Source: Microgenomates group bacterium
GTDB taxonomy: Bacteria; Patescibacteriota; Microgenomatia; UBA10105; UBA927
Direction of reading: 5' to 3'
Length of the DNA: 41,155 bases
Assembly (NCBI GenBank): GCA_049287205.1
Contig: JBAQFJ010000001.1
Coordinates: 1-41,155 of the forward strand
Shown here one piece after another: positions 6,001 through 39,811 of this stretch. Position numbers and translations under genes: made by a program. Every line of letters begins with the position of its first letter. The stretch's first letter is position 1. Below the pieces are notes generated by a model that saw only the letters and a list, made by a program, of their open reading frames with translations, was not told where the DNA came from and made no database searches.

Positions 6001-9000
6001 TTGCGTCTGCACTGCTCGGGAAATACAGCGGCGAGAGTGTTACTGTTTCCGTACGCGATATTGATGTCTATCGTCAAACGCAGGTAAAAGAAGGGACAAT
6101 CCCAGAAGTGGTTAAAGAACAGCGTATTTCCCAAGCTGAGTTGAAACAAGCCTTGGATACGAATAACACGGTAAAAATGACCAAGGAACAATCCATTCTT
6201 TCACGAACAGAACCTGATGTTGTCAAAGCAACCGCCATTGAACAAAAAGCGCAGGCAGTTCGGGAAGCAGTTGCTGTATATGAAAGTGCACTTCTTGACA
6301 GACCGAAGAAATTGGCTGCAGTAACTGAAGCAATGAAAACATATGAAAAGGCATTGGCTGAAAGCAATATTACGAGTTCGAAAACGACTTCTTCAGTGAA
6401 ATCCCTTACTACAGCACTTTCCGAAAAAGCAATGGCGTACACCAAAGCAGTCACCGAGTATAAACAAACCGCAACACCGGAGAATTTAACAAAAGTACAA
6501 ACTGCAGATATCGCATTTAAAAAAGCGCAAATAGATGTATTTGTTGCAGAAAAACAGGCGTTTGTATATGAGGCGGCAAAAGGGTTGAACCCTGTGGAAC
6601 GGGCAAAGATACTGACTAAAACAGAACTCATGCCTGAGCTGCCGGCCAGTTGGAGTGAACCACAGAAATTAACAGTAGAACTTCGGGTTCGCGCGATGGA
6701 GATGAAAATCAATGAGGTGTGGAAGGCAACCGGAAAACTCAAACAAACCGGGGTATTTGGATGGAAAGCAGCGCAAATTTCTGATGCAGTCAAACTCCTT
6801 TCTGGAAACCGTTCCCTTGCTATTCAAATGACTGGTGGAGGAAAAACATTTACTAACGCGCTTTATATGGATTTGAGCTATGAATTAACCGGACGGCCGG
6901 GAACATATATTGCCAAAGATGCGCAAAGTATTCAGGTGTACAACCAGTTAAAGCCGTTGTTCGGCGAGGATATCTATTATTTCCGGCTGGGAAAAGACAT
7001 CAAAGGCAACCCATTGGATATTGTGCAACAGGAAGCACAAATGCGCAGTGCTAAATTTATTCTTGCTGAACCGTCTGATATCGCGTTTTTGCTTGATACC
7101 ATGAAAAGTCCCGGACTTACCACACAGCAACAGATTGCTTCATTTGAAGCCTACAAAAAAATCTATACTGCAAACAGAACAATTGACGAGTTCCCAGAGT
7201 TTTTGAATTCGAAAAACGAATGGGTGATGTCGTTTACCAGCGATCAGGCAGTGATAGGGTCTACTAGACAAACTGCATTAATGGAACAATTACAGAAAGT
7301 GTTTGTTGAAAAGAATATCCTCACTGAGGGGCTGGTCGGTTCACAGGAGCGGGTGCAGTTAACGGATTTGATTGAAAAAACCATTGTGGTTTCTGATGGA
7401 ACCGTGGTAAAACAGTCGCATTTTACCGAAAAAGGTGTCAAAAGCATGATTGATTCCATGCTTGAAACAAAATTATCTGACGGCAATGTGTTATTTGACG
7501 GCTTGACCGGAACTAGAGAGCAGAAAATTGCAACAGTGTATGAAGTATTTGATGCAATTGCAACGCGTGATCCGGCAAAACTTGCAGCTATTGAAGCAGA
7601 TCCCGTGCTGACAAAGATTTATACAGACGCCACTTTCCTTGGGGACGCGATGAATAAATCGGCAACTATTTTAGTGTCAGAAATTGGAAGTCAGACATTT
7701 GCAACCGGTATCGGATCAAATGGAAATCTGCAGGCGAATGTGAAAGACGGAGATATTATCACAGCATTGTCCAGAAAAATGCTGCAGTCGTGGGTTTGGG
7801 ATACACCACTCACAATAGAAGCGTTAAAAACTGTTTCTGTTAACGGGCAAACAATTAAAACAAATATTTTTGATTTGTATGCGTGGGATATTGCTTTCGG
7901 AAGAGAGGTTGGAGGATTTTCCGGTGTGACTGCAACGCCTGATGCAATACGCAACATCGCAAAAATGGCGGGCTATACCGTTAATGAGGCAGAAATTCTA
8001 GTAGTGAATGCAGCCAACAAAAAAAGAATTTTCGGGGAGCCGGATGCGGCGACCGGTAATTTAACAGGGGGACGGGTGAGTGAGAAAAACTTCGTGAGCC
8101 TGGGGGAACAGGGGGATTTGGTGCAGGCGGTGAAAAAATATGCGGCGATGATGACTGAAGAGCTTGTTAAACAAAACGGTGTTGTTATAAACAAAAGTGA
8201 CAAGCATATTCTTGCAGTGAATGCGAGAGCTTCTAAAGAAGAAATCATGGCGCTTATGGCAAGCGAAAAGAATTTGGGAACGAAACGAAACTATGTCGTG
8301 GCAACAGAGGATGGGAATATTTATGAGGTGAAATTTACCGATGGAAAAGCGCAGTTTGTGGAAATGACCAAAAAATACAGCAACGTTAATATTTCCGCCA
8401 AGGCAACCGGACTGGAACGGATCATGTCTACCGGTATATCGGACCACACAACAGTTATCATCCTTGAAGGACAGTCTATCGGAGGCGATTTTCCGGGAAG
8501 TAAGGAGATTTCATTCCAATCCATTATTGATGCAAGCCGCGCAACAACAGAAATTGTGTATCAGACACATGGTAGAGGCATGCGTACAAACGAAACACTA
8601 CTTTCCGACGGAATGATTACCTTTGGTTCAAAAGAAATAGTCGGAAATTCAGCTGAGTCGATGAAGGAGTTCATCGGCAAAATTGAAATCAATTCGACAG
8701 TTGCACAAAAGAATCTCATGGCAGAGGCAATTCCTGCATGGCTCAATGCACAGGCAAATCTGCCGATGTATGAAGCATACGTGGAATTGATGAATGCTGG
8801 AAAACCAGCTGAGGCGGCAAAAATCTCCACCATGCTTGCCGACATGCAAAAAGTACAGGAAAGCTATGATGCAAACGTGTTCAAAAAAGGAACAGAGTTT
8901 AAGGATTCGGTACAGCAAAAAGTGAATGAACTATCAGCAAAATATAACAGACTTCTTACTGAAAATGCAGACTTTTTTAATCAGCCGGACATGGCAGCGC

Positions 9001-12000
9001 TTAAGAATCGTCTGCTTGCTGATAATGTCGAAGCCTACACGATTTCTATCAAAGAAACTGGTGGAGACGTTGCAAAATTACAACTTGCCGGCGATGGACT
9101 TCGGGGTGCAGCTAGGCGAATATCAGAAAACTTAAGCTTTGACGAAGTGCCGAAGTATGTTGCAGGCGATACTGCAAAAGGGGAAATTTCCGCGAAGCTT
9201 GCAGATGCGCTTAACGGCATAAAAGGTGAACCGATTACCATCACTGATCCGGCGTCAGCTGCACTAAAGGCTGCTGCTATGCAGGCAGAACAGGATCTTG
9301 CGATTTCAGGAGGCACCACAGGAACAAAAGTTGTTAACACAAAGAGCAGTACACAAACAGCAGTAGACATATTAAAAACTATACAAGGACAATCAACAGC
9401 TATACAAACTCCGCAAGACCGTGCATTGGTGATTCAAGGATTATCTCCTGCGCGTGCCAATGTGGCAGCAGCACTTGCTCTATATCAACAGGAATCGGCA
9501 AAAATAACAATAACCCCTATTGATCAAACAACTGACAAAAAATTGTCTGTCGGCGTGAAAGTAGAAGGACTTGCAATAACCAATGCGAATCAGGTTGTGC
9601 TTCGGGTTTTGAAAACTGGAGGAAGAGTTGTGACAACCGTCGGAGAGACAACGTTCGATTTTGCAGACAATACATCTTATTATGTGGTTGCACCTGAAGG
9701 ATATGTAGGAAACACCACAGTTGATGATATTACTACGCGTGCTGGTGGAGTGAAAGTGACTATCGCTTCATCAGTTGAACAACCTGCTGACTCTGCAGTG
9801 ATTGCAAAAGCGCTTCAAGATTTGAATCTTGCAAAAGATGAGGCAAACACGATTGAATATGGGTTGTTTGAAGATGCGCTGCAACGAGTTACAGAACAGG
9901 TTGGGGGAACAGATGAATTTGCACGAAGAACTGCGGCATCTGCACTTATGCAGTATGAATCCGCTGTTTCTGATGTTCTTGCAACAATGACAGATGCACA
10001 GAAACAAAGTCTATCAGACCCTATAGCACTAGATACTAATGCATCAATATTGGCAGCACGGACAGCAGCAGTTACCGCAATTGCTGCATATAAAAATGAT
10101 GCAACATTTGATGCGGAACAAGCGGTAACTCAACTTGCACATCCAATCATGACAACACTGATTGCACTTGCAAAGGCAGAAATATCAACTATTGCATCAG
10201 ATACAACAACCAAAGACACTGTGACCTTTGGCAACGCACCAAAAGCAAAACAGACAAGTGTTGTCGGCGCATTCTTTACAGGCATTTGGAATACATTAAA
10301 TCCTCAGGGTACAGAATGGTTTACCGCAGGCGCGCAGACCGTGCAGGCGTATTGGAATCTGACAAAGAATGCTGTACAGCAAGGCGCGCTTGCAATTCGG
10401 CAAAACGCAGCAACGCGCCGAGTTGCGCGGGCGGAAGAAAAACTAGACGCAGCAAAAGCAGTGAAAAGGATCACTGTTGCTGACAGAACAATAGGACAAG
10501 CAACTCAAACACAGGTGACTGCGGAAAATCGTGCACGCACACAAACAGCCGGATTACTCAGTATTCTTCCATGGAAAAATAAAGCAGCACTCAAAAGTGT
10601 GATGCTTGAAATTGACGGACTGCGAAAAGACATCACCAATCACAAAGCAGTATTAACAACACTTGCAGCGGATCAGAATACAACAATTGATGAATTGCCG
10701 GATGAACTGATAGGACAAGACGGAATTGATGTTTCTCTCCGTCGAGGAGTCATTGCTCTGGATGAGAAGAAGATTGGTGTGCTTCAGGATTCATTAGTGC
10801 CATTGTTGCCAAAACGATCAACATTCAGCCTGTTGTCGGTTATTGATCGAATTTCCACATGGAGAAATTTGACGATTGAAAAACGGCAGGAAAATGCACA
10901 AAAAATATATGATACGGCAGTAGACAAACAAACTGCACTTGCAACACAACAGGCAACTGCTGAAAGCGATCTTACTGTGGTGCAAGAAACACTCACCAAT
11001 GCACTTGCCGCATGGAGCGAAGCTGCACGTCCAGGATTTGCCGGTGGATTTACCGCACTCCGAGAGGCAATTGTTGATCCTGACTATTCTCTTAGAAAAC
11101 AGGTTGACGCCATGGTGCGCGAAGAGAAAAAAATTGACAGAAAGATTGCCAGAGAGAAAAATGCCGGTGATCAGGAACAAAAGCATTATGAGGCAGTGGC
11201 ACAAGAACTCGCACGGCTGAATGAAAAAATTGCTCCTTTTGCTGCAAAGGAAACCGCCGCGAACAACAGCATCAACAAGGCCTATCGCCGAATTAACGAT
11301 CTTGAGAAAAAAATTACAAGAATGTCTGCCGCCACTCAAACAACTGCCATAGAAACACGCATTGCCGGATGGCAAGCACAGATTGCAGTCCAGCAAGCTG
11401 AAATTGCCCGTATGAATGCGGAGAATGCTGAAAATCACAAACAATATACGAAGATTTCCAACCAAAAGAAATCCTTTGAGCAAGAATTGACGGTCGCACT
11501 TCAAGCGGCATCGGAATCAAAAGATGTGATTTTGACCCTGGAAGAACAGAAAAGTGCTCTCGTGGAGCAACGTGAGAACATAGCGATTTCTGATGCACCG
11601 GGATTGTTTGAATCCATCAAACGCATTGCCGGATTTATGGGTGTAGGATCGGCATACAATGCGGACGTTTCATCATGGGCACGGCAACTTGTCGGATATA
11701 CCGCTGGCAATGTATCTGATACCGCTATTGCCGCTGCGTATAAAACAAAACATGCGGTACTTGCCTCAGCCTTGGAAACAGCAAAAAAAGATGTTGTAAA
11801 CGCACAAATCGCATACGACAAGGCCACTATTCGTCAGGAGAATGCGAAACAAAAATTGGCACTCATACAGCAATCACTTGAGGATTATAAAACTGCAAAG
11901 CAAGATAATCCGACAAACATTGCGCTTCCAAATGTCATGAGCAAAAAATGGCTGGAGGAGATTGCAACACTACAAAGCAAGGTTGAGGCAATCGATGAAC

Positions 12001-15000
12001 AGCTCCATGGGCGGACAATGGAGAACGCAGCTGATGCCGCTGAAAAGATCGAAATATATCAAGCTACCTCTCTTCGGACCATCTATACCGACCGGATTGC
12101 CGAACTGGAACGCAATGTTGCCGAGAAGAAGACGATCGATATGTCTGCTGTGGATACATCATATCTGGCATATCTTGAGGTTTCCATGCATAACGCAGAA
12201 AGCGCTGTGGAGATAACAACACATTATACAAACGGAATGAAATTCCTATTGACTCATGCGGAAACTGTACTGGAAAAACGACAAACAGCACTTGATGCAC
12301 TTGGAACATTTGAGGCTCCTGTGCGGGATCTTGTGATGCCTGCAGCCCCAGGATTTCCACAAGTATTGCTGTCTATGGTTGCACAATTGAATCCTGATAT
12401 TAGAACGATGTTGACAGAAGAACGGCGACAAAATGCTGTGTATACCGTGGCGACTGAACTTCTTAAAAAAGGAACCACAGAAGTTATCCAAGTATTGACT
12501 ATTGAAACAAGCGGCCTTGCAAAAACCATTACAAAGCAAGCAACACATGTTTTGCGCGTCAACAGAGGATCTTCAACACAGGAAGAAGAAGTGCAATCGA
12601 TATTTACAGCTGCAAAAGAACAGGCGAGTGCATTTGTAATGCTCTTTACTGCATTTTCCGCTGAACAAAAGAAAGCTATTGTGGTTGCAGTCATTGCCAA
12701 ACAACCAATCGGGGACAGTAAAACAAAACAGCTGCTTGAGACAGAACTTCGGACTGTTGCACATGATGGGCTCTCAGATATGCTCTTTACCTATTGGGTG
12801 TCGAGCATGGCTGAACAATTGCTTCCAGTAGTAAATACAGCAAAGCAAACAGGAGAAATTAAAATTATTCCAGCTGGAACGCAATCCATTGCACCGATTA
12901 CTCCTATTGCTCCAATTGTTTCCTTACCAAAACCTTCTGTGATTACACCAGCAGGTCCTACTACGGAACAAAAAGAGCGTGTGGATATGATCATTCAGGA
13001 ATATATGATCACCGTTCGAAAAGAAGCGGAAACAACAAAGAATTTGGATATGCTTACGTTTATTCCTACCGTTGTTGCAGCGATCAGCCGAGATATTACT
13101 GATGAGGGGCTTCCAGAACTTACGCTTTCACAAATAGAAGCAGTAACAGAGCAACTTACATTGGAGATACAGGCAGGTATTGCAAAACAATCTGCAGTAC
13201 CAGCATCTCCACTGGCACAGCAAAAGGCAACGATAGAAACAGAAATTGCCAGTGTGACGCAAGCGCTCCGTGCGGCAACAACTGTTGTTGAAAACTATAC
13301 AAAAAATAAAGCAATAGTCGATCAGATTAAAAAAGAGCAAGGGCAAATTCAGGGGGTTCAAAAGCAAATCACTGCTGCACTCACCGCAGTAGATGTAGAT
13401 ATACTCGCCGTGGACGATCAACTGCAACAGGCATCTGCGGAATTGAACAGATTATCTGTTCAAATAGCAAATTCATCAATTACTCCGGAAGCACAGGCAA
13501 AACGCGCGCAGGCAGTTGCTGAACAATTAGTGAATACTATGGATGCAGCACAAATACCAATTATTCAACAATGGGTTAAGACACTCAATGCTTCACAGCA
13601 ATATACAGAGGCTTCGATTCGCGAAGTACTGACAAATGATTTGCAATCTCGTTTTGCTGGCATTGAATCACTCGCGGCGGAGCTGTTATCTACGACACCT
13701 GAATTTGCAGGTGACACGGACGGTGTCAACAATTACGCGGCACAAATTGCACAAACACTTTCTGTTCAATGGTTTATCAATCGGTATACAGATTCAAAAT
13801 TCTTTACAGTAAAAACTACTGTTGATCCAACTACGGCGCGAAATAGTGTTGCCATTGGAGATGTCCATGGTGATTGGAATGCATTAGTAAAAATACTCAG
13901 TGGTCAAATGGCAAATGAAAATGGAGAACGTATCAAAAAATCACTTATTGATAGAAATGGCAATTGGATTGGTGGACCGACGGATCAGCTGATACTAACT
14001 GGAGACTTTTTTGACAGAGCCCCGGATGGGATATTAAGTTCCCAGACAGCAGAAAAATTAATGAAATTACAACAACGTGCGGGAATGATGTCTGATGGAA
14101 AAACACCAAAAATTGTGATGCTTTTGGGTAACCACGATGCAAATACAGTTGTTGCATACAATAAAATGAAAGCGCTTCTTCAATCCGGTCAAATGACAGA
14201 TGTGAAGGAGGCTGCCGACCTTGCATCAGTTTTTGCGCCAGTAAAGCCGGGCATTGCCGGTGATGATTTGTTGTATTTGTATAATCATCCGGAAGTGGTT
14301 GATTGGGCAACTCGACTTCCTGCAATGTTTGTACAGGACGGCGCATTGTATATGCATAGTGATAATCTTTCATATCTTTCTCTCGGAAGAACGGTCGATG
14401 AAGTGAATGAAAACGTAGGGAAGATTCTTCAATCTGGGCAAGCCACCATTATTGATGCGGACGGAAATACATTGGAGTTTGACCAAACAAAACTTGCGAA
14501 GAAATTGACTGACAGAGGGAAATTGTATGGTAGTAATGTTGATAAAATATTGAACCAATATGGTGTACAGACCATTGTGCACGGCCACTCGCAGGGAGAA
14601 GCCTCTCAAGATCCACGAGTGACGAATGTTGATGGCGGATTATCGGAATCATATAGCGGGCAAGCAAAAAATCGTGGAAGATTTGCATCACAACAGGTGC
14701 AAGGAAAACAAATAACCACAGTTGCTGTTTCCCCTCTAACATTACCAGTGGCAGATGTTGCAGTTGATCCGATTCCATTATCACCATCGCTTGTTAGTGC
14801 AGCAGCAACCCCAGACATACAGGCGCAACTTGCAACATATAAAACGCAAGTAGAGACGCTTGCAAAAGAAAAAGCGCAGTTATTTCAGACAAAAATAGAG
14901 CAACGTTTTCAATTGGAAGCACTAGAAAAAACGTTACAGGAAATAACTACAAAATTGAGTGGAATAGCTGTGAGTGAATCGACATATAAAACAGCAGTTG

Positions 15001-18000
15001 CATCGCAAAAAGCGCTGAAAAAACAACTTGCGGCAAACAAGAAATTGTTAGATGAGGCTACACAATTGATTGGAGCTCAACAGGAGTTGCGGGCGTATGT
15101 GGCGACCTTGCGTAAAAATAAGTTGGTAAAAATCAAAGACAGTGCAGTTATCTCCTTAGCATCGCTTTCGGACATGAGAGATTTCGTTTCCGCTCTTGGC
15201 GGGTTGGTGGCAGCGTCTATTGAAAAGCTTGTACCGACGACTGCCGATGCAATTTTTACCATAGAGGCGTTAGTAATTGATGCACTTCCTCCCGCAGGGT
15301 TGATCAATAACATTGTTGAAAGTACAACATTCGTGCAAACTATTCAGCAGGCACTGCTTAATGCAGCCGATGCACTGGATACAGAGGCACAGCGTGCAGT
15401 GTTGATTAAACAGCTGCAGGGAATTGAGATTGAAGATATCGATACCTTATCTATTCAAGAACTCCAGGATCTCGTTGACATGTTAAAAGACGATGCAGCG
15501 CAGTTGCAACAGGGGCAAGAGGCACAGATACAGCAGAAGATCCAAGAGGGTATTGATGCATTCAAGCGTATTGCAGCAGATCAAGCGGGGAGGAAAACAC
15601 TCCTTGCTGTGCCGGATGTCAATGTATTTGCGGTAAACGCAGTGGGTCAGTTAAATGTGGAACTTCAAAAGAATGCGCTTCCTGTGTTGTCTCAGTTTCA
15701 AGAGCGAGCTCTTGCACTTGAAATTGTTTCTATCGTGACAACAGTGAAAAAAGAAGAAGCTGTGGGGACAGAGGAGCAATCGTTTTATACCGAAGAAGGG
15801 GGAGATTTGGTGGAAAAGGCGACGAATAGGCGTTATCCCAATATCGAACCGTTTAGGGAAGCGGGGAAAAAGTCACCGTTAGAAGCTCCGGGACCTGTTG
15901 TTTCTGTTGGTACCTATGATCCAAACGAACGTCCGGTTCTTTTTAACTCCAATATGTTTAATTCGCTTCTTGAGAACATGCGTACACATTCGTATACCTA
16001 TGATGCAAACGGTCAACAGGTCTTTTCGAAGGAATTTGGTGCCATGTTGTTTGGTCGAGAAAAAACAGATCCGCAATCAGGCAAAACATATGTTGAAGCT
16101 GAATATTATATTCCATTTCCGGAATCCACATTGGTGGGGACTGCGGGCGATTTGAATATAACTCCTGAAGCATGGGCTGCAGTATCAAAAATCGCGGATG
16201 CAATGGAAAAACACGTTGAACCTGGTCTCATTCCATTGGGATGGATTCATACACATCCGGATCTCGGAACATTTTTGAGTCGGCAAGATCTGTTTATTCA
16301 AGGAAACTATTTTCCTGCAAAACTTGCGGTTGTGATTGATCCGAGAGAACAAAGCGATGCAACGCCTGTGGTCAGTACATTTTCAGAATTTGGCATAGGA
16401 GCAGCACAAAACAATACGCGTTTTAAAAAACATCAAGGATATTACTTGGCATCTCAGACCATGCTACCGCGAGCATTGACAGATGATGCAGTGCAGCATA
16501 TTGCTGAGATTAATACAATCATTGAGGACTTATCTGTTACACCTGCGGGGACAGGGACATCAGAACTTGATCAGGAAATAGCAAAAGAAAAAGCTGTTAT
16601 TGCTGAAAAAGAACGGTTGTATGCAGCAATCGAAGAAGAAGCAAAAGACAATGGTGTGATGCCAAAGGATATTCGAGCACGAGTGCTTGCGTTTACTGAT
16701 TGGTATTCAAAAGAAATGGGAATACCATTTTCAGAACGTAAACAAATGGATTTAGATCAACAGCTGAAAGAACATGCGCAGGCCGGTGTTTTTTCTTGGA
16801 CCAGAACTCAATTTACCGATGCAATTACTGCTATTCGTGCTGGGGGAATAACAATAGAAGATCTCCCTGCAGCTCCTGAGTCAGCAGCAGAAGGGTTTAA
16901 AGTTTTGCAAGCATATCTTGATTACTTACAGACACAATTTATTGGAGAACAGCAACTCACAGCAGATAAAATTGCCGTTTCCACTATTCTTGAACAATTT
17001 AATACTATATTTGCTGCAAAAGGACGGTTTGATGCATCTTTCATCAACGCAACAAAATTACTATTTGTTATTCCAGATTTAGTGAATGCAATTGCAGATG
17101 TACAGGCATTCAGCAAAAAACTGGATACAGAGATTCAGCGGCAAGAAACAGAAGGCCAATCTCAAGAAGCTTGGATGCAAACACTTCAAAAACAATTAGA
17201 AACGCCAGGGGTCGCAACAATACTTATCACACGAAATAACGGAGTTGTTGCACAGACCATTACAACGCCATCATCGTCATATTTTGCTGATGTTCAAGCA
17301 ATATTCTCTGCGTTGTCGACAACAGATACGATTACTGTATTTTTTACTGCCGATGATGGGTCACAATTTGCAGGAACATATCATCTGAATTGGTTCGGGA
17401 GAGTAGTACAAGTTGGAATGAATATTCCATCGTTGTCGTCTGTTACTGACAGTCGACCAGAAGGTATATTTCAACCAGTTCCTGCATATTTAACACCGCA
17501 ACAAAAAGGAGAGATCGAGGTGTTTATAGATAGTATTGAAAATGTAACAAATGAAGCGGTTCGTTCGAGAGAAAATGAACAATATGCACGTGCGTATGCA
17601 CGTTTTGAAGAGCAATTAACAGCTGCTGAAAAAGCTGCAGCACGCTCGCAAGAAGAAATTGATGCACAAGTCGCACGAAGTGCAGCACTTGAAGCAGAAA
17701 AGCTGCAGAATGCACAGACAAAATTTCTTCCTGCGGGTCCAACTGTTCAAGAGCAAATCAGTGCAAGTTTGCTTGCTGAAAATACTGAGGTAGCACAAAT
17801 GCTCCTTGATCAATTGAAAAATATATCACAAGGGAAAACGATCGACATCGTAGATCCCATAAGTGGAGAAGTGTACACCGTGTCAGATTATACAGCTCCA
17901 TTTTTGACGACTGCGATGACACAATCCTATCAAGCAGGAAAAGATAGTGCGCGCGTTGTATCAATGATGCGACCATTTATCGTTGCTCCCCAAAATGTAC

Positions 18001-21000
18001 AACCAATACTACGACCAAATACCGCTTTAGTACGGCAGCAATTACAAAAAGAACTTGCCAAAAAATTATCTGCAGCAATACAAGTGGGGATGACTGCTTA
18101 TACCAACGAACAGGGGATCAAAACAGTTCAGACTATACAGAATGCTATCAAAACATATCTTGAGACACAGATTCCTGTTAGTGCAACCGTTGATGAAACG
18201 ATACGAAATACTGTAATAGAGGAGCAGACGCAAAAGACTTTTACAGCGACACTCGCAAGCATTACGACAATACAAAAGACGAGTATTAACACAATTGACG
18301 ATGCTGTTTTGCGGGCAACCACACTTCCAGAGTTGACAGAGCTTACTAAACAACTTGCAGAAACGAGCGGTATTGTAGAAGCGTTGCAGTTAACCACGTT
18401 GCAGGAATTACTCACCATTGTTGCAGATGATATTGCGGAACAAAGAATAGCAATTGAGACAGTGGAGCAGGAAAAACGGTTGGCAGAAGCGCAGGAAGAA
18501 TTGGGTGCGGCATGGGAACAGCTGATCAGTCAGGGAGAGCAGGGGGATCAGACGACGGTATTGGAAGATGCGTTGGGTGTTGCACAAAACGCTGTCTCCA
18601 TTATTCCGGTTGCGTATGAGAATCTCGTCAACGAATTTGAATTTGGCATTATTGAAACACCGGCAGTCAAAGCGAAAAAAGCAAAACGAACAGCGGCGGT
18701 AAAAAAAGTAAAAACAACACCAGTCGTTGTCACCACTGCGCCAACTACAGAACAAATAGCGACCGCGCAAATAGTACTTGGAGCTTTTTCACCACTCCGT
18801 GATCGTGTCAACAATATATCTAATCGTCTTCCTGCTGTTTCAATAACGGAAATGCAAGACATATTTTATGATCTTACCGCAGCCATACAAGCTGTAGATC
18901 AGGCAGATATGCCGAGTGAAGAAAAACAAAAACTCTTCCCTTCATTTAGTTTGATTCGGAATGAAATAGCGACGATACAGGATCGACTGACCACACTGGA
19001 ACGGGAACAGCAGACGATTCTCTATGAGATTAGTGATGCCGATTATACGTTGTTTGCCTCTTCTACAGTAAGCATTGTTCATCAGTTGGATGTTATCGAA
19101 CTACTACGACAGGAGCTTGTAAGTGTTGTACCATTGAGTATTTCTGCTCCTGTTGTCAGTATTCCTGAGTTGACTGCTGCGGAAGAACAACCTGCGGCAA
19201 CAATTTCTGATGAGTTAGAAACACGTATCAGAGAAACACAAAAGGCAGTTATTCGGAGAATTTTTTCTGAACCGATATCAACAGCAATTGAGGTAAGTCT
19301 CAGAGCACAACTTCAAGACTTGCAGGTACAAGTTCCACAAACATCACCGCAATACACAAGTCTGCAGCAAACGATGGATTTGGTTACACAGGCCGTGCAT
19401 GAACAAACAATAAAAAGTATCGCAAAACAAGTTGCTTCTGTTACAGAAGTGTCGCAAGAACAAGCAAATGTGTTGCTTGCTCAGCTAAGCGCGATTCCTG
19501 AAGGTATTTCTCCAACTGCGGTAGCTGATCTGAAAGTGCAGATTCAAAATAAATTGCCTAAGACACCAACAGCCCCTATTGTCACAAAGTCAAAAACACC
19601 AAAACAGCTTGCTGCGGAAGCGGGTCAGGCAATGAAAAATGTACAAAAATCGGTTGCTGACGGTGCAAATTTCACAATTACTTGGAGAGCAATACAGTCT
19701 GCGTTTACTGCATCAAAAACACTGGCAAACAGCAAAGAATATAGAACAATGCTCATTGATGAAATCGTGAAGATTCAAGATATAAAGATACGGACACGAA
19801 TTATTGACAACTTACACCCCCTATTTAAGGTGCTTAAGATAAATAAGGAATGGAAAGACTTTACCTCGAATCTGCAAAAACGATTGAGTGAACTTCCTGC
19901 AGTAGAGACAAAGCCGATTGCTCCAGCAGTAAAACCTGTTGTAAAAATAACCAAACAGCAGATAACAGAAGCAAATCGGGCAGTAGAGCAAATGAAACTG
20001 GCAATTACACAAGGCGCATCTCCACAACGGGTATATACAGCCATCAAAGAAGTTTTACTTGTATCACGGTTGTTTGCAAATAATCAGGAATATAGGACTC
20101 TTGTCGGAGACGCAATACAGGAGATCCAAGATGAACATACATTACAGACAATTTTGAGTGGTCTGCACTCGTTCTTTATGGTGCAACGAATGGTGGAAGA
20201 AGGGAGTGAGCTTATTGAACGAATACAAGCGAAATTAGATACAATTGTACAAACGCAAGAGAATGAAGAGAAAGAACAGATTGCGCAATTAACTCAAGAT
20301 ACAATCGGTCTCCAAGAGACGAACGAGATAATTGCAGCGCTTGAACAGGAAATTACAAAGACACAACAAGCAATTGATCAAAATATACAAAAGTATGGAG
20401 ATGTATCTGTTATATATCAAAAAACAGTAGAAGATCTAAGTAAGACGGCAACTCCGCTTGAGGGGATATTTACTCTTGAAGCTGTCAATGTAACTGGAGA
20501 CTTTTTTGAATCGAGCGGAGATACGAAGGCGAAGGTGTTACAAAATCTGCAACTTACTAAAGATGAAACTGTCTTGGAACCGATCGGTTCTGGAGCAAAT
20601 AGGGCTGTGTATAGAATTCCTTGGAATGGAAAACAAGCTATATTGAAGATAGCCTCCTTAAAAGAACAAGCGTGGAGTGATATTGTAGAAAAGTCAGTTC
20701 TTGAACAGGATCCCGCGTTTCCAAAAGAATTATCAAAAAATCTTCTTGAGACATATGCACACGGTTCGTTTGATGTCCCATATAAAAATGGTTCACGAGC
20801 GGTCTATTACGAGATTGTTGAATCGTTGACACCGGAGGTAGATTCATCCTCTACAGAAGTAACTGCTTTTGAGCATGAATCCAGTGCATTACGTACATTT
20901 CTTGGAGAGATGAGTGACGTCACTGGTGCAAAAAATTGGGGAGTACGACCAGATGGTACACCAGTGCTTTTGGATATAACGAATTTTAATATGAGTGGGA

Positions 21001-24000
21001 TTGATGATATGTTGAGTTTTTTGAGGGTTCGAATACAAGATATACAAAAAAATGTGCAATTTTTTCAAGCCGCGAAGACGGATCCAATCCTTCAGATATT
21101 ATCCCGTATACATCGTATTGTTTCTGATGATATCAAGTTTAGTGGAGATCTCGCTATTTTGGATGCATCGTTTAAAACAAAAGAGGATTATATTGGGCAG
21201 CTTATTTCTCAAGAAATACAACCACTTTCTATAGATAGAGTGAATTTACATCTTGAAAATCAGCTGACATATAAAAATAGACCGGAAGAGTTTTATAAGA
21301 GTGTGAATGATGCTATTAACAAGCTTACTCGTTTGAAATCTGCAACAACACTGGAAGAACAGATCCGTATCGCATTTACTGATGACATCAAAGTTACGCC
21401 GGCAGGCGTGGAACAACCGGAAACTGTTGAGGTGAAAACACCAGTTGTAGATACAGCTATGGAAACTGTTAATAAAACCATCGTTCTTGCGCAAGGGTGG
21501 ATTGAAAAAATTAGATTAGGAGAGGCTGCGTATGTTGAAAATATTCCTAAATTTATCACGCGGATTCAAGAAGTGGTAGCACCATTACCCGCTGAATCAG
21601 AGGCATATGGTGCGGCACAGAAACTGATTCAAACACTTCAAGAGCTGAAAAAACAACAGACAGAAAAAAAAGAGCAGGCTCCAGAAATTCCAATAGAAAA
21701 AAAACCGTTAGTTGAAGAAATAGCTGTAGTGCCAATTATTGAAACAGTGCTTACTGAGGAAATTGCACCAATGATGACAAAGCGATTGCCTGCGGTTTGG
21801 AAGACAGTACAATCAGCAAAACAGCAGGACATTATTGCCGGACTCCAACAAATAGCAAAAGGCGCAATAGAAGATGAAGTTAATCAGTCATATGTCAGGG
21901 ATATGATTGCTGGAGCTCGGTCAAAGGCATTTGTAACGAATCGGTTATCAGCCGCTTTTGAGGATTATCTTCAACAAACACTTGTGCAAACCGGTCTCAT
22001 GACAGGTGAAATTCCACTTGCACTTCGGACAGATTTGGCAACACTCGTGATTGATCAAATTACACCATTTGTATCGACGACAGTCACTATTTCGAAGCCT
22101 GAATCGACAACGACAAAATCGAAAATGACAACACCAGTCGCAACTGTCAATACAACCGTGGTAAAACAACAAATTGCAGATCAAGTGCGAGAACAGATTG
22201 ACGGTCTACTACCAAATCTTATTGTTGAACGTGCGGAGCGAAATGCAGTTGAGGAATCAATACAACGTCTGCAACAAGCAGGGGGAGACGTGGGAGCAGC
22301 GATTAAGAAAAATAAAGAGGCAATAACCAATGTAACATTGCAAGAATTGCTTCGAACGCATGAATTTACACCGGAATCTGTTCTGTCTTTGCAAGGAGCT
22401 ATATATCAAAAACAATCAAAAGGTGCGCTTTCTGTATCAAATATCGCTTGGCAACTTGATCCGGAACAAAAAACAATTGTCACGATTCATCACACAGACG
22501 GAGTTGTTGATCAGGTAAGTATAAAATCAAGTGCAATGACGCAAAAAACACTGCTTGCCTATATGCGACCCCTCGACAGTGCAGTATTTACCACAGCCGC
22601 CGGAGAAAAAATTGTGATTACGCTGACACGACAAGGCGGAAAGACCATTGACGGAAATATGCAAACACCGGCAGTGTGGCAACAATACAGTTCTGTTTCA
22701 TCACCTACAATGATTGTTTCCGGTTCAACAGCAGATACGCCGGTGTATCGAGTTTCCGCAATGGCTATCGAAACTGGAGATAAAGCAGTTTCCCTTGTTG
22801 GTGATGTAATAAAAACAACGGCAAAAGCAGCAGGTTCAGTCCTTCCTAAAAAAGCCACATCTTTAGTTGGTGATGTGCGCGCCATGATCCCGCAGGATGT
22901 GCCGTATGTTGTACGAAAAGCAGTAGGAGATGCACTTACACAGGAATTTGCGGCACAAAATATTACAACGTATGAAACTGCCGCCGCATTTTTAGCAAAC
23001 GGGACAATCTCACAAACCATGCAAACGACGTTTGCCGCATTACAAGAGCTGACAGCGAATGCAACGGAATGGTATCAGGCAGCAGGTATGGTAATGACAC
23101 ATATGTCTGAATTACAATGGGATCCAAAATTTACCGTTGTAACCCGACAAACAACGGCAAGTATTCTGGCTGGAAAAATTGCTGATGCTACACGTATGCA
23201 TGCATTGGTTGCAGGAAAAACCTCTCTTGCTTCTCAAAGTGAGATTATATTGTTAACCGGCAGAATACTCACGATGTATGCCGCGGGAACAAATGGAATA
23301 AAACTTTCTTCGAAAGAGACAAAAGCAGTAATAAATGCATTACAGCAACCTATAAGTGTATATATCACTGCTGTATTGGAGAATCAAATTGCGACAAGCA
23401 CGCTGTTTCCGGCTGAACAACCAGCGTTACAAAGCGCAGCAACAGAAGAGGTGAAGCAATTGATAGAGGAGGAAACAGTACAGGCACCAGTAAGAGAATT
23501 AACTCCATCAGAAGTGAAAAACCTCCTCCAAACAGCGCCAATGATCGAAGAAATACGAACTGACATTGCATGGAGATTATCAAAGAATGCTGCACTATCG
23601 TCATTAACCACCATGGACGCGCTCCTTGTTGCCAACGGGCAGGTTGAACAACTGATACAAGCATCTATTGGAGAGATTGTGCAGGAAGCATACAGCGATG
23701 CAGGTGTAACCGGTGTGTTTAACCCACAGGAAAAAAATAACCAAGTGATTACCGACGTTGTGCATCAAACAACGCAGCAAGCGATGAGTGTATTAACACG
23801 TCTTATTCGAGGTGACATCGCATATCAAGGTATACAGCCTGCGGTAGAGGAAGCAGTTCGGCAGAGTGAGGAAACAACACGTGCGTATGTCTCATGGAAT
23901 CAGGTAAAAGAATTTTTGGATAAGACAACACATGTATTACAGGAACCGAATACGTATTTCTCCGGAGAAAGCCTTACATATATTGCACAACTTCTTTATA

Positions 24001-27000
24001 AACCACACGCACTGCAAACAGATTTGCAAACGATAGCAGAAAAACCAAAGGAAATTACAAAAAAACTGCCGAAAATGTTGAGAACGATACGGGCGCAGGA
24101 TATAGCGCGGCAGGCTTCAGAACGAACAAAAACAATAGTCAAACTTACAGCAACAGGGCTTGCAGTTTTAGGAGTGTATGCAGTTACGCACATTCCTGCA
24201 ATTCTCGGATTTGCCGGTGCAATGCGTATCGCTATGACGAATCCAGGAGCAAACATAACGCCAAGTTCGCCAGTAACAATTATTGAACAATTCACCCAAG
24301 CACCAACAATCAATCCAACTAATACCCTTGATTTATCCACGTCTACTCCAACACAAGCACCGTCAGCAACACTTGCTGCACCGGTTGATACTGTAGGACA
24401 AGCGTTATATGAAGCGTATTTGGGTTCTGCGTCAGTGCAGGATTTTGCGTATCGACCTCTTTTTGAGCGGGTTGTGAATGAGCGTATAGCACGCGCACAA
24501 GCCGAAGGAGATGCATTTTGGATTCGTATAACAGGAAAAAATGCATCGCAATTAACCCAAGCTGAAAAAGACGCAGTGTTGCAAAATCCGGTTGTTTCTA
24601 TTCCTTTGCTTGTGACAGATGGTGATTTGGTTGATCCTAGTGGTGGCAAGTTGGAAACAGCAGAAGAACAGGCTGTCGCACTTCGATCCATGCGAAACGA
24701 TGCAACCTTTGTTATTTATTTGAATACACAAACAGGACGTTTGGATATATTAAGTTCCACGCGGCAAGTGCTGATGAGCAATGGCGGGCAATATAACGCA
24801 CTGTTACAGCGGGATAAAGAGAATCCGCTCCAAGGTGCCCAAATTGCACTTGAAGAAATGTTTGGGACTACCATGGATGAACCGATTGTGGCCGACCGGT
24901 TTTTCCTTAGATATCTGGTTGACGCGGTATTTCCAGAAGGGATTACTGTTTCTGTACCGCAAGATATGGTGCGTGACTCAATGAACGCCAATGGTCAGTA
25001 TCCTGTTGTGTATAAAGCAGGAACGTATACCTTTCATGGAGATGAATTGATTAGTTATATAAGCGTCCGTCATTTGCAAAAGGAGACAGAATATCATAGG
25101 CAAGCGCGCGCCGCACAAGTTCTTTTTCTCATGCTACAAAAATTCGGAAGTTCAGCAAATTCCGCTGAAATTATTGAAAACATGTCGCAGACTCTGCGAT
25201 TCCATGTTCAGGAAGGCGGCAGAATCATAATGCTAAATGATTTAACCGGTGCAAAAGGTTCAGATGACACATTCGCAGCACTGGCGACGCGGTTTCAATT
25301 TTTGCAAAATCCGAAATATTTCAGTTCCGGAGCGTTTGGAGAAATTTATGATCATCAACTTGCATTAAATGCCAATTTCTTAAATCCCCATCTGTCTGTT
25401 TTGCAGCCGGTTGCCAGCAGAACAGTTACTTATGCAAACCTGTTGAAAGCCCTTGGTGTCTATATTAATCCGGTTGGTGTGTATGTTCCTTCCGGCGTAG
25501 ACCTCTGGTACATGCCACAACCGTCAGCACAATCAGCTGGATATTTTGCAAGCACGCGGGAAATTGCAAAAGACATGGTGAGTGAAAGCGTTGACGAAAT
25601 ACAAACAGTGCTTGTTCCTGTTGTTCCCACTGCTGTTCCTGCTGTTGTTGTTCCTGAAGTTGAACCTGCTCAAGAAGAACAGGCACAAATACCAACAGAG
25701 TCTGCTGCTCCTGCGGCATACCAGATTACCGATCGGCCGGTGCGGATTATGCTTTTGGGAGACAGTCTGATTTCCGCAGGAACACTTCCGACAAAGTTTT
25801 CCGCCAGTTTAGGAAGTGCAGGATGGAATGTTGTATTTGTAGGAAGCCAGGCAACCGGACGTGTTGCTCATGAAGGCCATGGAGGATTTTCAACCAGCTG
25901 GTTTGTTCGAGATCTTCTTAATACTGATGGTGACGGCATGTGGAACAATCTAGGACAGCGGGAGCCGACACTAAATCTCAAAGGCGCAGACACTATACCG
26001 GATATCGTTGTGTTACAGATGGGCACGAATGATATTAATAACGGTTATCCGTTGGAAAAATCAAAAGCGAACATGGAGACAATTATTGCGTATCTGCAAC
26101 AGCAAAATCCGCATGTGCAGATTGTGATTAATCCTGTTCCCGTCATGAATGCTGACTACTACGAAAACGCAACACCTGAAGCGATTGCGGCATACAACGC
26201 GATGCTTGCGACACTTACAACATCAAGCTCCACTAATACTTCGAGTATTGTCATGACTGATGCGAGTCTTGAAAATATCGATTTGGCAATAGATATCAGT
26301 TCCGATGGTGTGCACCCAACTCAATCGGGCGATCAAAAAATAGCAAATGCACTGCAACGTGTTGTCGGGGAACGGTTATCAGAATTAACCGGTATTGATA
26401 CACAGGCATATGTACCGTCTGGAAAAGTATTGCAAATGCCGGTTGCAGTTGAACGCGTAGAGATTATGAAAATGATTGCAGTGCAACAATGGGAAGAATT
26501 GCAAAAAGGAATGAAAACAAGACAACAAGATGTTGCAGTACAGCAGGTACAGGTAAAACGAAATGAAATACAAGGACCTATGAAAAACATGATGGTTGAG
26601 ATCATTCCATATTGGTTGCAGCAATCTTGGTATACCAACGTGGTGATGTCTGAAAGTTTTTGGGCACTGATGGATTTAACGCATGATATAGAAGTAATTT
26701 TAAAAAATGATCAGGTGAATATCATCAAGACTCCGAAAAAAGCGACGGAAAGCAAAACAAGACAGACAAATCAAATGCTTCCCGTGGAACAAAAAGTGGA
26801 GGAAGTGGTCGCACCGGTGGTGAAAACAATTGAAGACGCGGAAAATGATCCCTGCGGTTTCAGCTCTTTGTTTATTGAATCTGTTTTTGCCCAAGGAGCA
26901 GGAAATCCCTGTAGCGGGTCAACAAAAATAGTAAAACAGATAAGTGGATTGGTGTTTAAGGCGACCGGACGCACAGCAAGTGATGCAATGAAACTCACCG

Positions 27001-30000
27001 CCTACATGCCACATCGGGTGATATGGAATCAGATAACAAACAGTAGAAAACAAGCTGTTCCTTTACAACAAATGGTGGTAAGTCCATTCTCTGATTCAGG
27101 AAAAATGATTCCGATGCAGACAGTGGAACCTGCGAATATTCAATCTATGAATCCGGAAAATGCAGATTGGAATGCATTAACTGTTGATGAAAAGGCGATT
27201 CTTCGTTTGGCGGATTTTGAAATAGTGCGAGATGAATATATTGCTATGAAATCGTCCTATTTCGGTTCACTTCCGAAGACATTCAGTGAAAAACTGACAG
27301 GTACGATTGCAAAAATTTGGAGTGCCGGAACCAATTTCCGTCGTATGCCACAGGATTTGTTTGTTCGACTTCGTGTGTTCCTGAATCCAAAAATCGCAAC
27401 AACTTTGAAAGCAAAAACCGTGAGCGCCTCTGTATTTTCCCGCGATACGCTGATGACTAATCCGACATTTACAGGAATTTTGGATCAGGCAAAGGCGGAA
27501 GGAAATACCAAAGCGTTGCAAACCATAAAGAATCTGCTTGATCGCGAAGTGATGAAAGAAGTAAATGCAGAGAATGTGTTGATGCTTGAAGGTATATCGA
27601 CAGAGGAACTTGCCGTGATTGTTTCAAAACTCGGGTATAATCCATGGGTTTTTTGGTCAGATAACAGGGGAGAGACCTCACGTATTGCTATTGATAATGC
27701 GTTAGTTGATGGAAAACATCCATTTGAGGCAAACGGCGCGTTGAATGGTCTTTCAGAGGAGCAAAAACAAAAAGAACTGTCCTACTTCCAGAAATTATTT
27801 CCGAACATTCCAAGGTGGCTTACTTGGCTTCCAATAGCAAAATGGAGCGTCTCTCGAGATCATAGCGTCGTCCACACCGTGACAGTTGATGGTAAAACGT
27901 ATCATTTTTTGACGATGCACGTTGATCCGCCAAACGCAGTAACGTTTGTGAAAGATGTGTGGAATAAAATTACCGGAAAAACCGCAAAAGATCACCGGAA
28001 TATGTTTGCGTACCATGCAATGGAAGCAGGAACCGGAAAATCATATGTCGGAACAGGTCTTTATGCTCTCGGTCAGAAAATGTTTATCCAACTCCTTGGC
28101 AGCGCAAAAGATAAGGGAATTATCGGTGGTTTAACTGTCACAGGGGAAGAGCACTATAAAACAACAGACACCGTTATTGGTGATGATGCCATCACGTGGA
28201 AGATTAGCGATATGGTGAAAGCGGAAACTGAGGCAAAAATAGTATCTCCGTCATTGACAACGGTTCTTATGAATCAGGACATTGACGCCTCTGTTGATAC
28301 AAGTGGAAAACCAACAATTATACCTGCAAATAATACGACGATTGTAGGGGAACACCATATTAGAACTTCGGTGGATGAGCAGAGTGAAGCTGATTTCATT
28401 AAGAAATTGGAAGTGTCTCAGGTGGTCGTTGTTGAATTTGATTCGCTTGGCGACAATGTATATTCCCAACAAAGCACCGAAAAGCGATTTATGCAGCAGG
28501 CGCAAGAACATGCACTTGCGCAAAACAAACCGCTCCTTGTTCTTGACAGCAGCATTGAGGATAGATATAAATTGTGGCTTGATGCTGGTGTCGATGTTTC
28601 CCGTGAAGATTTTGCCATTCTGACAGGATTTCGCCTGCTTTCACAGGATTTTGCCAACAATATCTCCGGCAGTCAGTCAAAGCAAACATTGGTTGATCTC
28701 TATACCGGATATTTTTCAGGGCAATCTGCGTATGCTAGCAGGTTGGCAGATGCGGTGTACCAGATGTATTTTGGACTTATTGAGTCAGATTCAGTTACGA
28801 AAAAGAATGCTTTGCAGGTTGATTTTGTGACGCTCGATGCGGCAGCGAGGGAACGGTATTACCAAAAAAGCATTGCAGCCATTGAAAAAAATGTATCAGA
28901 CAAAAACATATTGGTTGTTGTTGGTGCAAGCCACGCCATCCCAATTGCACGAACGATAACGGATGGATCGTTGACAAAAGCCGATCCTTTATTATCTACC
29001 AACATAAATACAACATTGTCGACGCTGAAACAGCAGATAAATTTTGAACAAATTATTTCGGGTATGCCTGCACTTCAGCAAAGTGAAGCTGCTTTGTCGG
29101 GGCAAAGTTTGACAATAGTGAGTATTCCTGCTGATTTAGCCTCATTTACCATGACGCGTGATGGATTTACCCTGAGTGGGAAGGGAACGATATCTGTCGA
29201 AGGTTCGACGTTTCCTGTCACTCTGGAGGGAGCATTTCCGATTTTTGCAAACATGACACCGTATCTGAAACAAGACGGATTTCCTGTTCGCGTGACAGTA
29301 AATGATGCAAATGGGAAACGGGTTGGATCTATTCACATGGAGTTTAATAAAGGGGACGAAAGTGTAGGGGATATAGGACGCTTACTGCAAGCAGACATCA
29401 ATAACAGTGTTTTTTTGACAGTGAACGTCGATGTAAATCCAGAATATCGGCAACAGGGAATAGCCACGGCGTTATTGGACTACACGGAACTATTGGCGAG
29501 TCAAGTGTTTTCTGAGGCCAAGAATTATCCTCAGCTGTATCCAACTAATCTTCGCATGTTTCATCTGCTTTTTGATGCGAATTCGACTGATGGGTTTACC
29601 ACAAAATATGCAGAATCTCACGGGTATAAGACAATCACACAGGGGCTACAATATGTGAAAGAGTTGACAGCAGATGTGAAATCATCTGTAGAGCAGGCAG
29701 AAAGGCTCAATGTTGGTTTGTTTGCTGAGGGGACAAAATATTTGGTGAAAGCGGGGGTTGATGCAGTACAAAATGGGGTTAAAAAGTTTTTGTATGGAAA
29801 CACAATTCAAAATTTTAATCAGTGGAAAGAACTAACATTTTCCAGTCAAGCATATTTGCTTCAACAAGCGGTACTTCGGGATCACAGAGATATTCTGCAG
29901 CGTATAGATATGGCCTCAAATGATGCACAAGAAGCAGTTAAAAATTTAGTTGCAGATACGTATGATCGGACAAAAACAGAAACAAGTTTACCGCTCGAAA

Positions 30001-34077: not shown

Positions 34078-34079
34078 TA

Positions 34080-35012: not shown

Positions 35013-35013
35013 A

Positions 35014-35529: not shown

Positions 35530-35576
35530 AATGAGGTAAAGATAAATAATAAAATCAATACACTATCCCTATGTTT

Positions 35577-35605
35577 ATAATGCTGATAAATAATGAAATT
35601 GTCAA
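35577..35605 (-). promoter_or_regulatory. Candidate sigma70-type internal promoter in the only sizeable intergenic gap of the operon
   Basis: On the minus strand there is a perfect -35 TTGACA (35605-35600), a 17-nt spacer, and then CATTAT (35582-35577; 4/6 to TATAAT). TATAAA lies 3 nt further downstream. This sits in the 116-bp AT-rich gap 35530-35645. Confidence 0.3.
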
Positions 35606-35645
35606 GAGAAAAAATACCCTGTTGGAACAAGAAAATATGTTGTAT

Positions 35646-37973: not shown

Positions 37974-37974
37974 A

Positions 37975-39810: not shown

Positions 39811-39811
39811 A

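Follow-up and report, generated by a model that had tools for sequence, protein, structure and literature searches.

The window analysed here is a stretch of 41,155 nucleotides (nt) from a Microgenomates group bacterium (contig JBAQFJ010000001.1, positions 1 to 41,155), in which a giant open reading frame (ORF) on the plus strand (30..32003) encodes a protein of 10,657 amino acids (aa). This ORF is the host of the element under study, a module at aa 8038-8782 (aa = (nt-30)/3+1) in which a hydrophobic segment and a Pro/Thr/Ser-rich linker precede a LytR-CpsA-Psr (LCP) domain, followed by a Val/Pro-rich linker and an SGNH hydrolase domain. Since the frame meets no stop codon upstream of nt 30, the ORF is cut by the 5' edge of the window, so that the true protein must be longer than 10,657 aa; the position "8,000 aa into the protein" given for the module in an earlier note on this DNA is correct as a lower bound. 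All the elements of the module listed in that note were found at or very near the positions it had assigned to them, an agreement far beyond chance. Overall, the element is best described as a canonical LCP unit, here extended by an SGNH esterase, that forms the conserved core and the topological landmark of giant membrane proteins belonging to a rare, fast-evolving and non-repetitive family.

The anchor region opens with a basic juxtamembrane stretch (aa 8010-8039; 24057..24146, plus strand) predicted to lie on the cytoplasmic side, in which nine Lys or Arg residues stand beside two Asp or Glu, compared with a single Lys or Arg in the 30 residues after the anchor. The hydrophobic segment itself, TATGLAVLGVYAVTHIPAILGFAGA (aa 8040-8064; 24147..24221, plus strand), is a predicted N-in/C-out signal-anchor and includes the highest 19-residue Kyte-Doolittle (KD) mean among all 10,657 aa (1.86, at aa 8044-8062). 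Means of 1.6 or more were reached at only six places in the protein, of which three are Pro-rich or acidic, two are C-terminal and one is aa 8044-8062. In the AlphaFold2 (AF2) model of the whole module the segment is helical, with low confidence. It is followed by a low-complexity, Pro/Thr/Ser-rich linker of 55 residues (aa 8065-8119; 24222..24386, plus strand) with predicted local distance difference test (pLDDT) scores below 50, and these three amino acids make up 37% of the 70 residues after the anchor. The basic stretch, the transmembrane (TM) segment placed at 24141-24236 and the linker of the earlier note were therefore all recovered, with the hydrophobic core narrowed to 24147-24221. 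Free-standing LCP proteins share this layout of basic tail, TM anchor, linker or spacer and extracytoplasmic LCP domain (PMC7831098). A putative counterpart of the N-terminal anchor characteristic of the family is present here in form, but it is internal (more than 8,000 aa into the protein) and moderately hydrophobic. The 19-residue sum on the Wimley-White octanol scale was considered as a second measure and was not used, as it returned 56 hits and was non-discriminating as implemented.

Downstream of the linker, a helical N-terminal extension that is specific to this family (aa 8120-8186; 24387..24587, plus strand; pLDDT 83-96) holds 14 of the 22 invariant columns, including the signature EGD[AS]FW..I.G, and leads into the LCP catalytic core (aa 8187-8434; 24588..25331, plus strand) with residues D8197, D8224, R8245, R8347, R8357 and R8360. 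The core was recognised by Pfam, alignment, AF2 and Foldseek. The Pfam profile LytR_cpsA_psr (PF03816) was matched over nearly its full length (positions 1-147 of 150) by aa 8222-8371, the score of 41.4 bits lying above the cut-off of 24.6, and a phmmer search of PDB sequences with the LCP part retrieved LytR/BrpA, gbs0355, TagT and TagV at E values from 1e-6 to 1e-4. This part was poorly modelled in the first whole-module AF2 run because the alignment was shallow, and a rerun with an alignment of nine LCP sequences mended the problem, so that most of aa 8120-8429 reached pLDDT above 80, with a predicted template modelling score of 0.73. Compared with the PDB by Foldseek, the LCP model gave 33 matches at E <= 0.001, every one of them an LCP structure, among them LcpA (6uex), TagV, MsrR, Cps2A and TagT; the best E value was 5.8e-10 and the target-normalised template modelling scores (TM-scores) reached 0.62, with 13-20% identity to characterised LCPs.

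In the sequence alignment, R8245 and R8347 correspond to R118 and R219 of TagT, which have catalytic roles according to a review of the LCP family (PMC7831098). These two Arg residues, the RxxR pair (R8357 and R8360), D8197 and D8224 are all kept in the window ORF and in two other giant proteins described below (P0001 and L002/P0014), and also in most of five LCP+SGNH proteins of ordinary size. The retention of the Arg pair, RxxR and the two Asp residues, while the rest of the giants diverged beyond recognition, indicates selection on the LCP active site. By its profile match, modelled fold and motifs, the domain qualifies as LCP, and the LCP-like domain proposed in the earlier note is borne out.

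The LCP core is separated from the last domain of the module by a Val/Pro/Glu-rich linker (aa 8520-8572; 25587..25745, plus strand), which is hydrophobic on the KD scale and disordered (pLDDT below 50). A TM helix within this linker (aa 8524-8542, KD 1.80) was ruled out by its proline content and disorder. The following domain is an SGNH/GDSL hydrolase of the carbohydrate-esterase-3 (CE3) type (aa 8573-8785; 25746..26384, plus strand), matched by Pfam Lipase_GDSL_2 (PF13472) at aa 8576-8769 with 62.7 bits (cut-off 32.9) and by PF00657 with 45.4 bits (cut-off 23.6), so that both of the profile searches proposed in the earlier note, LytR_cpsA_psr and Lipase_GDSL_2, scored above the curated cut-offs. 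Blocks I, II, III and V are intact, namely GDS (S8579), HGGF (G8618), GTND (N8667) and DGVH (D8759, H8762), and they are near-invariant in an alignment of 21 sequences. The domain was modelled with pLDDT above 90 in the whole-module AF2 run, and its top Foldseek matches are the CE3 acetyl esterases 5b5l, 5b5s and 2vpt (E values of 1e-12 to 1e-10, target-normalised TM-scores of 0.78-0.80); CE3 acetyl esterases were also matched in the PDB sequence search. Profile, predicted fold and motifs thus qualify the domain as SGNH/CE3-like, in line with the Val/Pro linker and motif-intact SGNH hydrolase of the earlier note, and its end lies near nt 26384, slightly beyond the 26375 given there.

At 32-39% identity, the SGNH domain is nearest to small esterases that are secreted, anchored or lipoproteins, and to the C-terminal domains of LCP+SGNH proteins, and the closest free-standing ones mostly carry a signal peptide, a lipobox or an anchor. 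The domain is absent from P0001, from L002 and from the closest ortholog of the window protein (L004), and it is a separate, lineage-specific addition to the module. A recent horizontal gain was considered and is unsupported: the codon-position composition of the SGNH domain gave no sign of recent foreign origin, its GC content at third codon positions (0.393) being about 1.1 standard deviations from the ORF mean.

Relatives of the giant protein were found by an exhaustive HMMER scan; when word indexing was used instead, queries made of the module, of its LCP part or of a profile from four sequences retrieved only a fragment of 112 aa (P0002). P0001, of 7,512 aa and also open at a contig end, shares five collinear blocks with the window ORF, and the strongest of them joins window aa 8046-8455 to P0001 aa 5876-6256 at 34% identity; the region directly upstream of the anchor (aa 7208-8015) is likewise conserved in P0001 and collinear with the module. 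Upstream, the frame of P0001 (locus L001) runs on into knottin-like Cys modules (one being CLADGKWCAVSSQCCSRSCDNFRC) between Pro/Thr linkers. The second relative, L002, was the sole locus obtained when a profile was searched against species-representative genomes, and belongs to a metagenome-assembled genome of a "Patescibacteria group bacterium" from Hainich groundwater, in which the whole 21 kb fetched reads as one uninterrupted frame encoding over 7,024 aa. The anchor and the LCP domain are the sole region that can be aligned between the window ORF and L002, and LCP is both the only Pfam family found in L002 and the only one above cut-off in P0001. L004, a frameshifted 6.8-kb JGI contig, is the closest ortholog, with 61% identity over window aa 8126-8301, and it also shares two features described below, the region of the late Cys pair and, at 45% identity, the TM bundle of the C-terminus.

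What is kept of the anchor in P0001 and L002 is its hydrophobicity and position, not its sequence, and a Pro/Thr/Ser linker follows it in both. The pre-LCP segment of P0001 has a KD of 2.01, the third peak of that protein behind aa 767-785 and a Val/Pro-rich linker, and that of L002 is a plain hydrophobic helix of 27 residues whose KD of 2.21 is the top peak among 7,024 residues. The anchor, linker and LCP domain are therefore what has been conserved at the core of these giant ORFs, a small family whose one named member is patescibacterial. This does not agree with the suggestion that a whole envelope-enzyme gene was recently fused in-frame, as the anchor, linker and LCP domain form the best-conserved block in the comparison with P0001 and the only alignable part in that with L002. 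A phage or plasmid origin was also considered, and tblastn with the LCP module gave no match in the phage or plasmid collection. Literature searches yielded no description of LCP domains inside giant proteins, nor of giant LCP proteins in Patescibacteria; a high propensity for huge proteins has been noted in some lineages of the Candidate Phyla Radiation (PMC11573180). As a separate observation, the C-terminus of P0001 (L001, about 22000-22767) is Cys-rich and includes an HExxH-type motif, HEFFHAW, which may mark a zincin protease domain absent from the window protein; the latter ends, unlike P0001, in a bundle of TM helices.

The pairing of LCP and SGNH domains also occurs in five metagenomic proteins of ordinary size (P0006, P0007, P0012, P0015 and P0023; 554-1,365 aa), with LCP upstream and SGNH at the C-terminus, and P0012 is a complete gene of 910 aa in a 508-kb contig. 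These proteins share with the window the order of LCP, low-complexity linker and SGNH, and their SGNH domains are among the closest to that of the window (32-37% identity, with common HEGHGGF, WN..G and GTND blocks), whereas identity between their LCP domains and the window LCP is only 15-20%. They also differ in not being giant and in having no clearly hydrophobic anchor before the LCP domain (KD at most 1.36). The pairing is thus recurrent, yet the two domains of the window protein have different closest kin. In this ordinary-sized family, to which a gene at L005 6001-8733 also belongs, an N-terminal region of 350-830 aa precedes the two domains, an architecture that was not found described in the literature searched.

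The remainder of the giant ORF is non-repetitive. No tandem DNA repeats longer than 41 bp were seen across the window and a self-BLAST of the ORF gave no internal match at E <= 1e-3; the protein is therefore not a repeat-built adhesin. Its cysteines are unevenly distributed: 45 fall in aa 1-1608 (30-4853), arranged from aa 404 onwards in pairs spaced by 8-21 residues, and the following stretch of about 7,300 residues (aa 1609-8941) is Cys-free. The only later Cys residues, C8942 and C8961 (26853..26912, plus strand), form a pair that is kept in L004 and lies in a predicted extracytoplasmic stretch, and none follows up to the C-terminus. P0001 has the same pattern: both of its ends are rich in Cys, and the roughly 6,000 aa between them contain none. 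By the KD scale the giant ORF contains about 4-8 candidate hydrophobic helices. Apart from the anchor, these include a C-terminal bundle of three, possibly four, hydrophobic helices (aa 10521-10543, 10551-10570 and 10629-10652; 31590..31985, plus strand), the first of which is followed by KHKR. About 1,870 residues and this TM bundle lie downstream of the module. A weakly hydrophobic, Ala/Gly/Met-rich cluster at aa 1361-1620 (4110..4889, plus strand; KD 1.1-1.6) holds three Cys pairs and is a candidate N-terminal membrane crossing.

Several enzyme-like regions had been claimed upstream of the anchor, and they fared differently. The phosphatase and the JAB region are real. The first is a calcineurin-like phosphoesterase (Metallophos) at aa 4607-4854 (13848..14591, plus strand) with the motifs GDVHG and GNHD, and the second a JAB/MPN+ metalloprotease motif region at aa 5391-5427 (16200..16310, plus strand). 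The latter contains an exact JAMM motif, HxHx7Sx2D (HTHPDLGTFLSRQD), at aa 5407-5420 (nt 16248-16289), and shows a weak Pfam JAB match and PDB similarity to AMSH and Rpn11; it could provide a self-processing or deconjugating activity inside the giant protein. Neither Metallophos nor JAB is proof of a cytoplasmic location. The claimed kinase was rejected, as the window gave no match to the Pkinase profile and no HRD...N motif. For the claimed ATPase, a Walker-A-like MTGGGKT is present, but sequence searches of Pfam, NCBIfam and the PDB did not support the assignment. This motif, at aa 2266-2274 (nt 6825-6851), recalls motif I of SecA or of helicases. In P0001 the corresponding features (L001, about 5400-5800) are LTGSGKT and LLADEAQ, where ResIII and DEAD matched below threshold, and phmmer against the PDB found nothing for this P-loop region. 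The P-loop motifs may parallel the SecA-like domains of the giant proteins of Omnitrophota, a lead only, which profile and PDB searches left unconfirmed.

Downstream of the giant ORF, the minus strand (32017-39822) encodes a Wzy_C (O-antigen-ligase-like) protein, a multi-TM protein of 794 aa that has no Pfam match, and a multi-TM protein of 615 aa that ends in an NPCBM glycan-binding domain; these genes fit an envelope-glycan locus. The genes beside P0001 (L001 28013-32168) encode counterparts of the 794-aa and 615-aa proteins at 58% and 69% identity, which indicates that the two loci are syntenic. Moreover, as the giants themselves are 25-40% identical in patches compared with 58-69% for these neighbours, the giant gene evolves much faster. 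The GC skew is positive (+0.02 to +0.18) throughout the window (1-41155), even at 32-40 kb where the genes are on the minus strand and where the AT skew drops to about zero, a pattern that looks like a replication-strand effect, as reported for some Microgenomates genomes (PMC7143001).

The membrane topology of the protein can be approached from the module. The charge asymmetry around aa 8040-8064 predicts an N-in/C-out orientation, and the membrane would therefore separate the residues upstream of the anchor from those downstream. The same assignment of sides draws on the hydrophobicity that three homologs keep at this site despite unconserved sequence, on the extracytoplasmic chemistry of LCP enzymes (PMC7831098) and on the export signals of the free SGNH relatives, and the late pair C8942 and C8961 falls within the stretch predicted to be outside. 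Because KHKR follows it, the first C-terminal helix is predicted to run from out to in, closing an outside stretch of about aa 8065-10520. An N-in/C-out anchor at aa 8040-8064 fits these features best, and from them we infer both insertion and sidedness. The topology switch claimed in the earlier note is a prediction that agrees with the charge asymmetry, the LCP layout and the KHKR stretch. Between aa 1620 and 8040 the KD scale gives no strong TM segment. A further crossing, proposed at 4130-4890, would lie in the cluster at aa 1361-1620, which is only weakly hydrophobic in the window protein and aligns loosely with a region of P0001 adjoining or including a strongly hydrophobic segment of KD 2.42.

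Taken together, we consider with a probability of roughly 0.6 that the module is a working, membrane-proximal pair of envelope enzymes inside a giant polytopic protein, as the sequence and model data suggest. Under this reading, aa 8040-8064 would act as an internal N-in/C-out signal-anchor, and the Pro/Thr/Ser linker would place the LCP phosphotransferase just outside the membrane, within reach of both polyprenyl-pyrophosphate-linked glycopolymers and peptidoglycan. The second linker would bear the CE3-type SGNH O-acetylesterase, and about 2,450 residues (8065-10520) would remain outside until the C-terminal helix bundle brings the chain back to the membrane. The LCP domain would join the phosphate of the glycopolymer to the C6-OH of N-acetylmuramic acid (MurNAc), and the SGNH domain would strip O-acetyl groups from the same hydroxyl, or from the glycopolymer, thereby freeing the acceptor. 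The MurNAc C6-OH is a site of both O-acetylation and teichoic-acid attachment, and esterases of the Ape type, acting on O-acetyl-peptidoglycan, belong to the SGNH enzymes and can be aligned with CE3 (PMC6174289). A "deacetylate, then ligate" coupling of this kind would explain why LCP and SGNH are found fused in several proteins, and the recurrent pairing of LCP with a CE3/Ape-like SGNH domain suggests such a coupling. Historically, the anchor and the LCP domain may represent the ancestral core, to which the SGNH domain would have been added later in this lineage, echoing the pairing in ordinary proteins. The domain identities, folds, conserved motifs, charge asymmetry and conservation of the module across the giants are observed features of these proteins, and it is the substrates and the reaction order that we infer.

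Some results weigh against this reading. The anchor is moderate in hydrophobicity and contains a mid-segment His-Ile-Pro at which the AF2 helix breaks, so that a re-entrant hairpin at aa 8040-8064 is possible. The NCBIfam LCP model TIGR00350 scores 29 bits, below its cut-off of 62.3, and the residue equivalent to D119 of TagT is Gln here and Gln, Met or Lys across the giants. The absence of the SGNH domain from three relatives indicates that it is not essential to the module. Because the N-terminal 1,600 residues or so carry Cys pairs of the exported type, a further crossing at aa 1361-1620 is needed, and the roughly 6,400 residues between this cluster and the anchor are Cys-free; in Gram-positives, such stretches are more typical of exported than of cytoplasmic proteins. 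In addition, a GNAT match at aa 9762-9823 (29313-29498) scored 19.2 bits against a cut-off of 27 and was not accepted; if real, it would conflict with an outside location, since acetyl-CoA is needed.

Part of this evidence fits a different arrangement, in which the protein leaves the cell along its entire length as far as about aa 10520 and forms a surface fibre held only by the C-terminal bundle, with aa 8040-8064 buried, re-entrant or inserted into a host membrane, and with the LCP, SGNH, JAB and phosphoesterase domains serving as effectors on the envelope of a host or prey. N-terminal Cys-pair or knottin-like modules and Pro/Thr linkers are typical of exported proteins, and the 7,300 residues devoid of cysteine, the helix break at His-Ile-Pro and the lack of a strong TM segment in aa 1620-8040 point in the same direction. 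The identity of only 25-40% among the giants, against 58-69% for their neighbours, is as expected for proteins of an interface or conflict. Besides, cultivated Patescibacteria are episymbionts (PMC11623550), and the giant proteins of Omnitrophota have been proposed to degrade prey walls (10.1101/2023.11.21.568195). We nonetheless regard such a fibre as unlikely, since the asymmetry of nine to one basic residues and the order of anchor, linker and LCP exactly match the membrane-anchored enzymes of the LCP family (PMC7831098), whose substrates are membrane-embedded polyprenyl-linked precursors; moreover, the corresponding segment of L002 is a plain 27-residue hydrophobic helix, and the upstream P-loop motifs of both the window protein and P0001 would need ATP.

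Another arrangement that would reconcile the module with the layout of free-standing LCP proteins (PMC7831098) is a polyprotein, cleaved by its own JAB domain or by host proteases to release an ordinary, N-terminally anchored LCP-SGNH enzyme, in which case the module would be embedded in the gene but not in the finished protein. An intact JAMM motif does lie upstream, low-complexity linkers flank each domain, and self-processing through C39 and S8 peptidase domains has been proposed for the Omnitrophota giants (10.1101/2023.11.21.568195). However, no cleavage motif was identified, JAB enzymes are isopeptidases acting at Gly-Gly-type ends, of which none were found here, and the conservation of aa 7208-8015 in P0001, collinear with the module, suggests a single working unit, all of which makes cleavage quite improbable. 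That the LCP domain is catalytically dead and serves the giant protein as a glycopolymer- or lipid-binding device for wall targeting is highly improbable, for although the D119 position is substituted, the NCBIfam score is below cut-off and the identity to characterised LCPs is low, both catalytic Arg equivalents, the RxxR pair and the two Asp residues are kept across very divergent giants.

Returning to the membrane-anchored enzyme pair, LCP enzymes are the ligases through which Gram-positive walls acquire teichoic acids, capsules and other glycopolymers, and those characterised so far are, to our knowledge, all small and bitopic. In the giants the unit of anchor and LCP domain forms the conserved centre of chains that range from 7,000 to over 10,000 residues, which suggests that at least one family of giant proteins in ultra-small bacteria has the attachment of envelope glycopolymers as a core function. 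The module also offers a concrete reference point for deducing how giant proteins are threaded through the membrane, a matter on which predictions have been termed unreliable in the Omnitrophota preprint (10.1101/2023.11.21.568195). More speculatively, these proteins could be undescribed, so far Patescibacteria-associated "hypertrophied LCP proteins", in which an ancestral TM-anchored LCP ligase would have grown by thousands of fast-evolving residues on both sides, so that one membrane-spanning chain would couple cytoplasmic enzymes (JAB, phosphoesterase and possibly a SecA/helicase-like motor exporting the outer parts of its own chain) to a wall-ligating and deacetylating machine. We hold this broader proposal to be doubtful at present; if true, such a protein could sit at the contact between episymbiont and host, where its LCP domain might form a covalent link between peptidoglycan and either the giant itself or a glycopolymer.

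Among known systems, the free-standing LCP proteins (TagT, TagU and TagV of Bacillus subtilis, LcpA of Staphylococcus aureus and Cps2A of Streptococcus pneumoniae) are the closest counterpart of the module, with the same order, fold and R118/R219 equivalents, and an additional C-terminal domain is a known optional feature of that family. The window protein differs in that the "tail" before its anchor has more than 8,000 residues instead of tens, in the added helical extension at aa 8120-8186, in the unconserved D119 equivalent and in the identity of 13-20%. Its SGNH domain has the same fold, Ser-His-Asp triad and Gly/Asn oxyanion-hole residues as the Ape and CE3 esterases, with the likeness to Ape drawn only via CE3; SGNH domains are also known to act as O-acetyltransferases, as in PatB and OatA-C (PMC6174289).

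At the level of the whole protein, the Omnitrophota giants ("Archaeovorins" and the dockerin-type proteins; 10.1101/2023.11.21.568195) are comparable in having very long ORFs in ultra-small, host-dependent bacteria, with divergent enzyme domains among TM helices and proposed envelope functions, and a SecA/helicase-like P-loop is possible in both. The window ORF, however, is shorter (more than 10,657 aa compared with 30,000-85,000 aa), has few TM helices and comes from a different phylum; it is not a member of these types, as Archaeovorins have at least 30,000 aa, numerous TM helices and a SecA_DEAD-like domain, whereas Pfam detected no SecA_DEAD, DEAD or ResIII domain in the window, and LCP is not mentioned in the preprint on these proteins. 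Giant adhesins of the RTX, Bap or Ig-repeat types are built of tandem domains, which the window ORF does not contain. Finally, PASTA kinases such as PknB and PrkC, as well as RodZ and anti-sigma factors, combine a large cytoplasmic N-terminal domain, one TM segment and wall-binding domains outside. The scale differs more than 20-fold and no kinase domain was found in the window ORF, but the predicted design is alike, in that an internal N-in/C-out anchor would join cytoplasmic enzymology to a wall-directed module on the outside.

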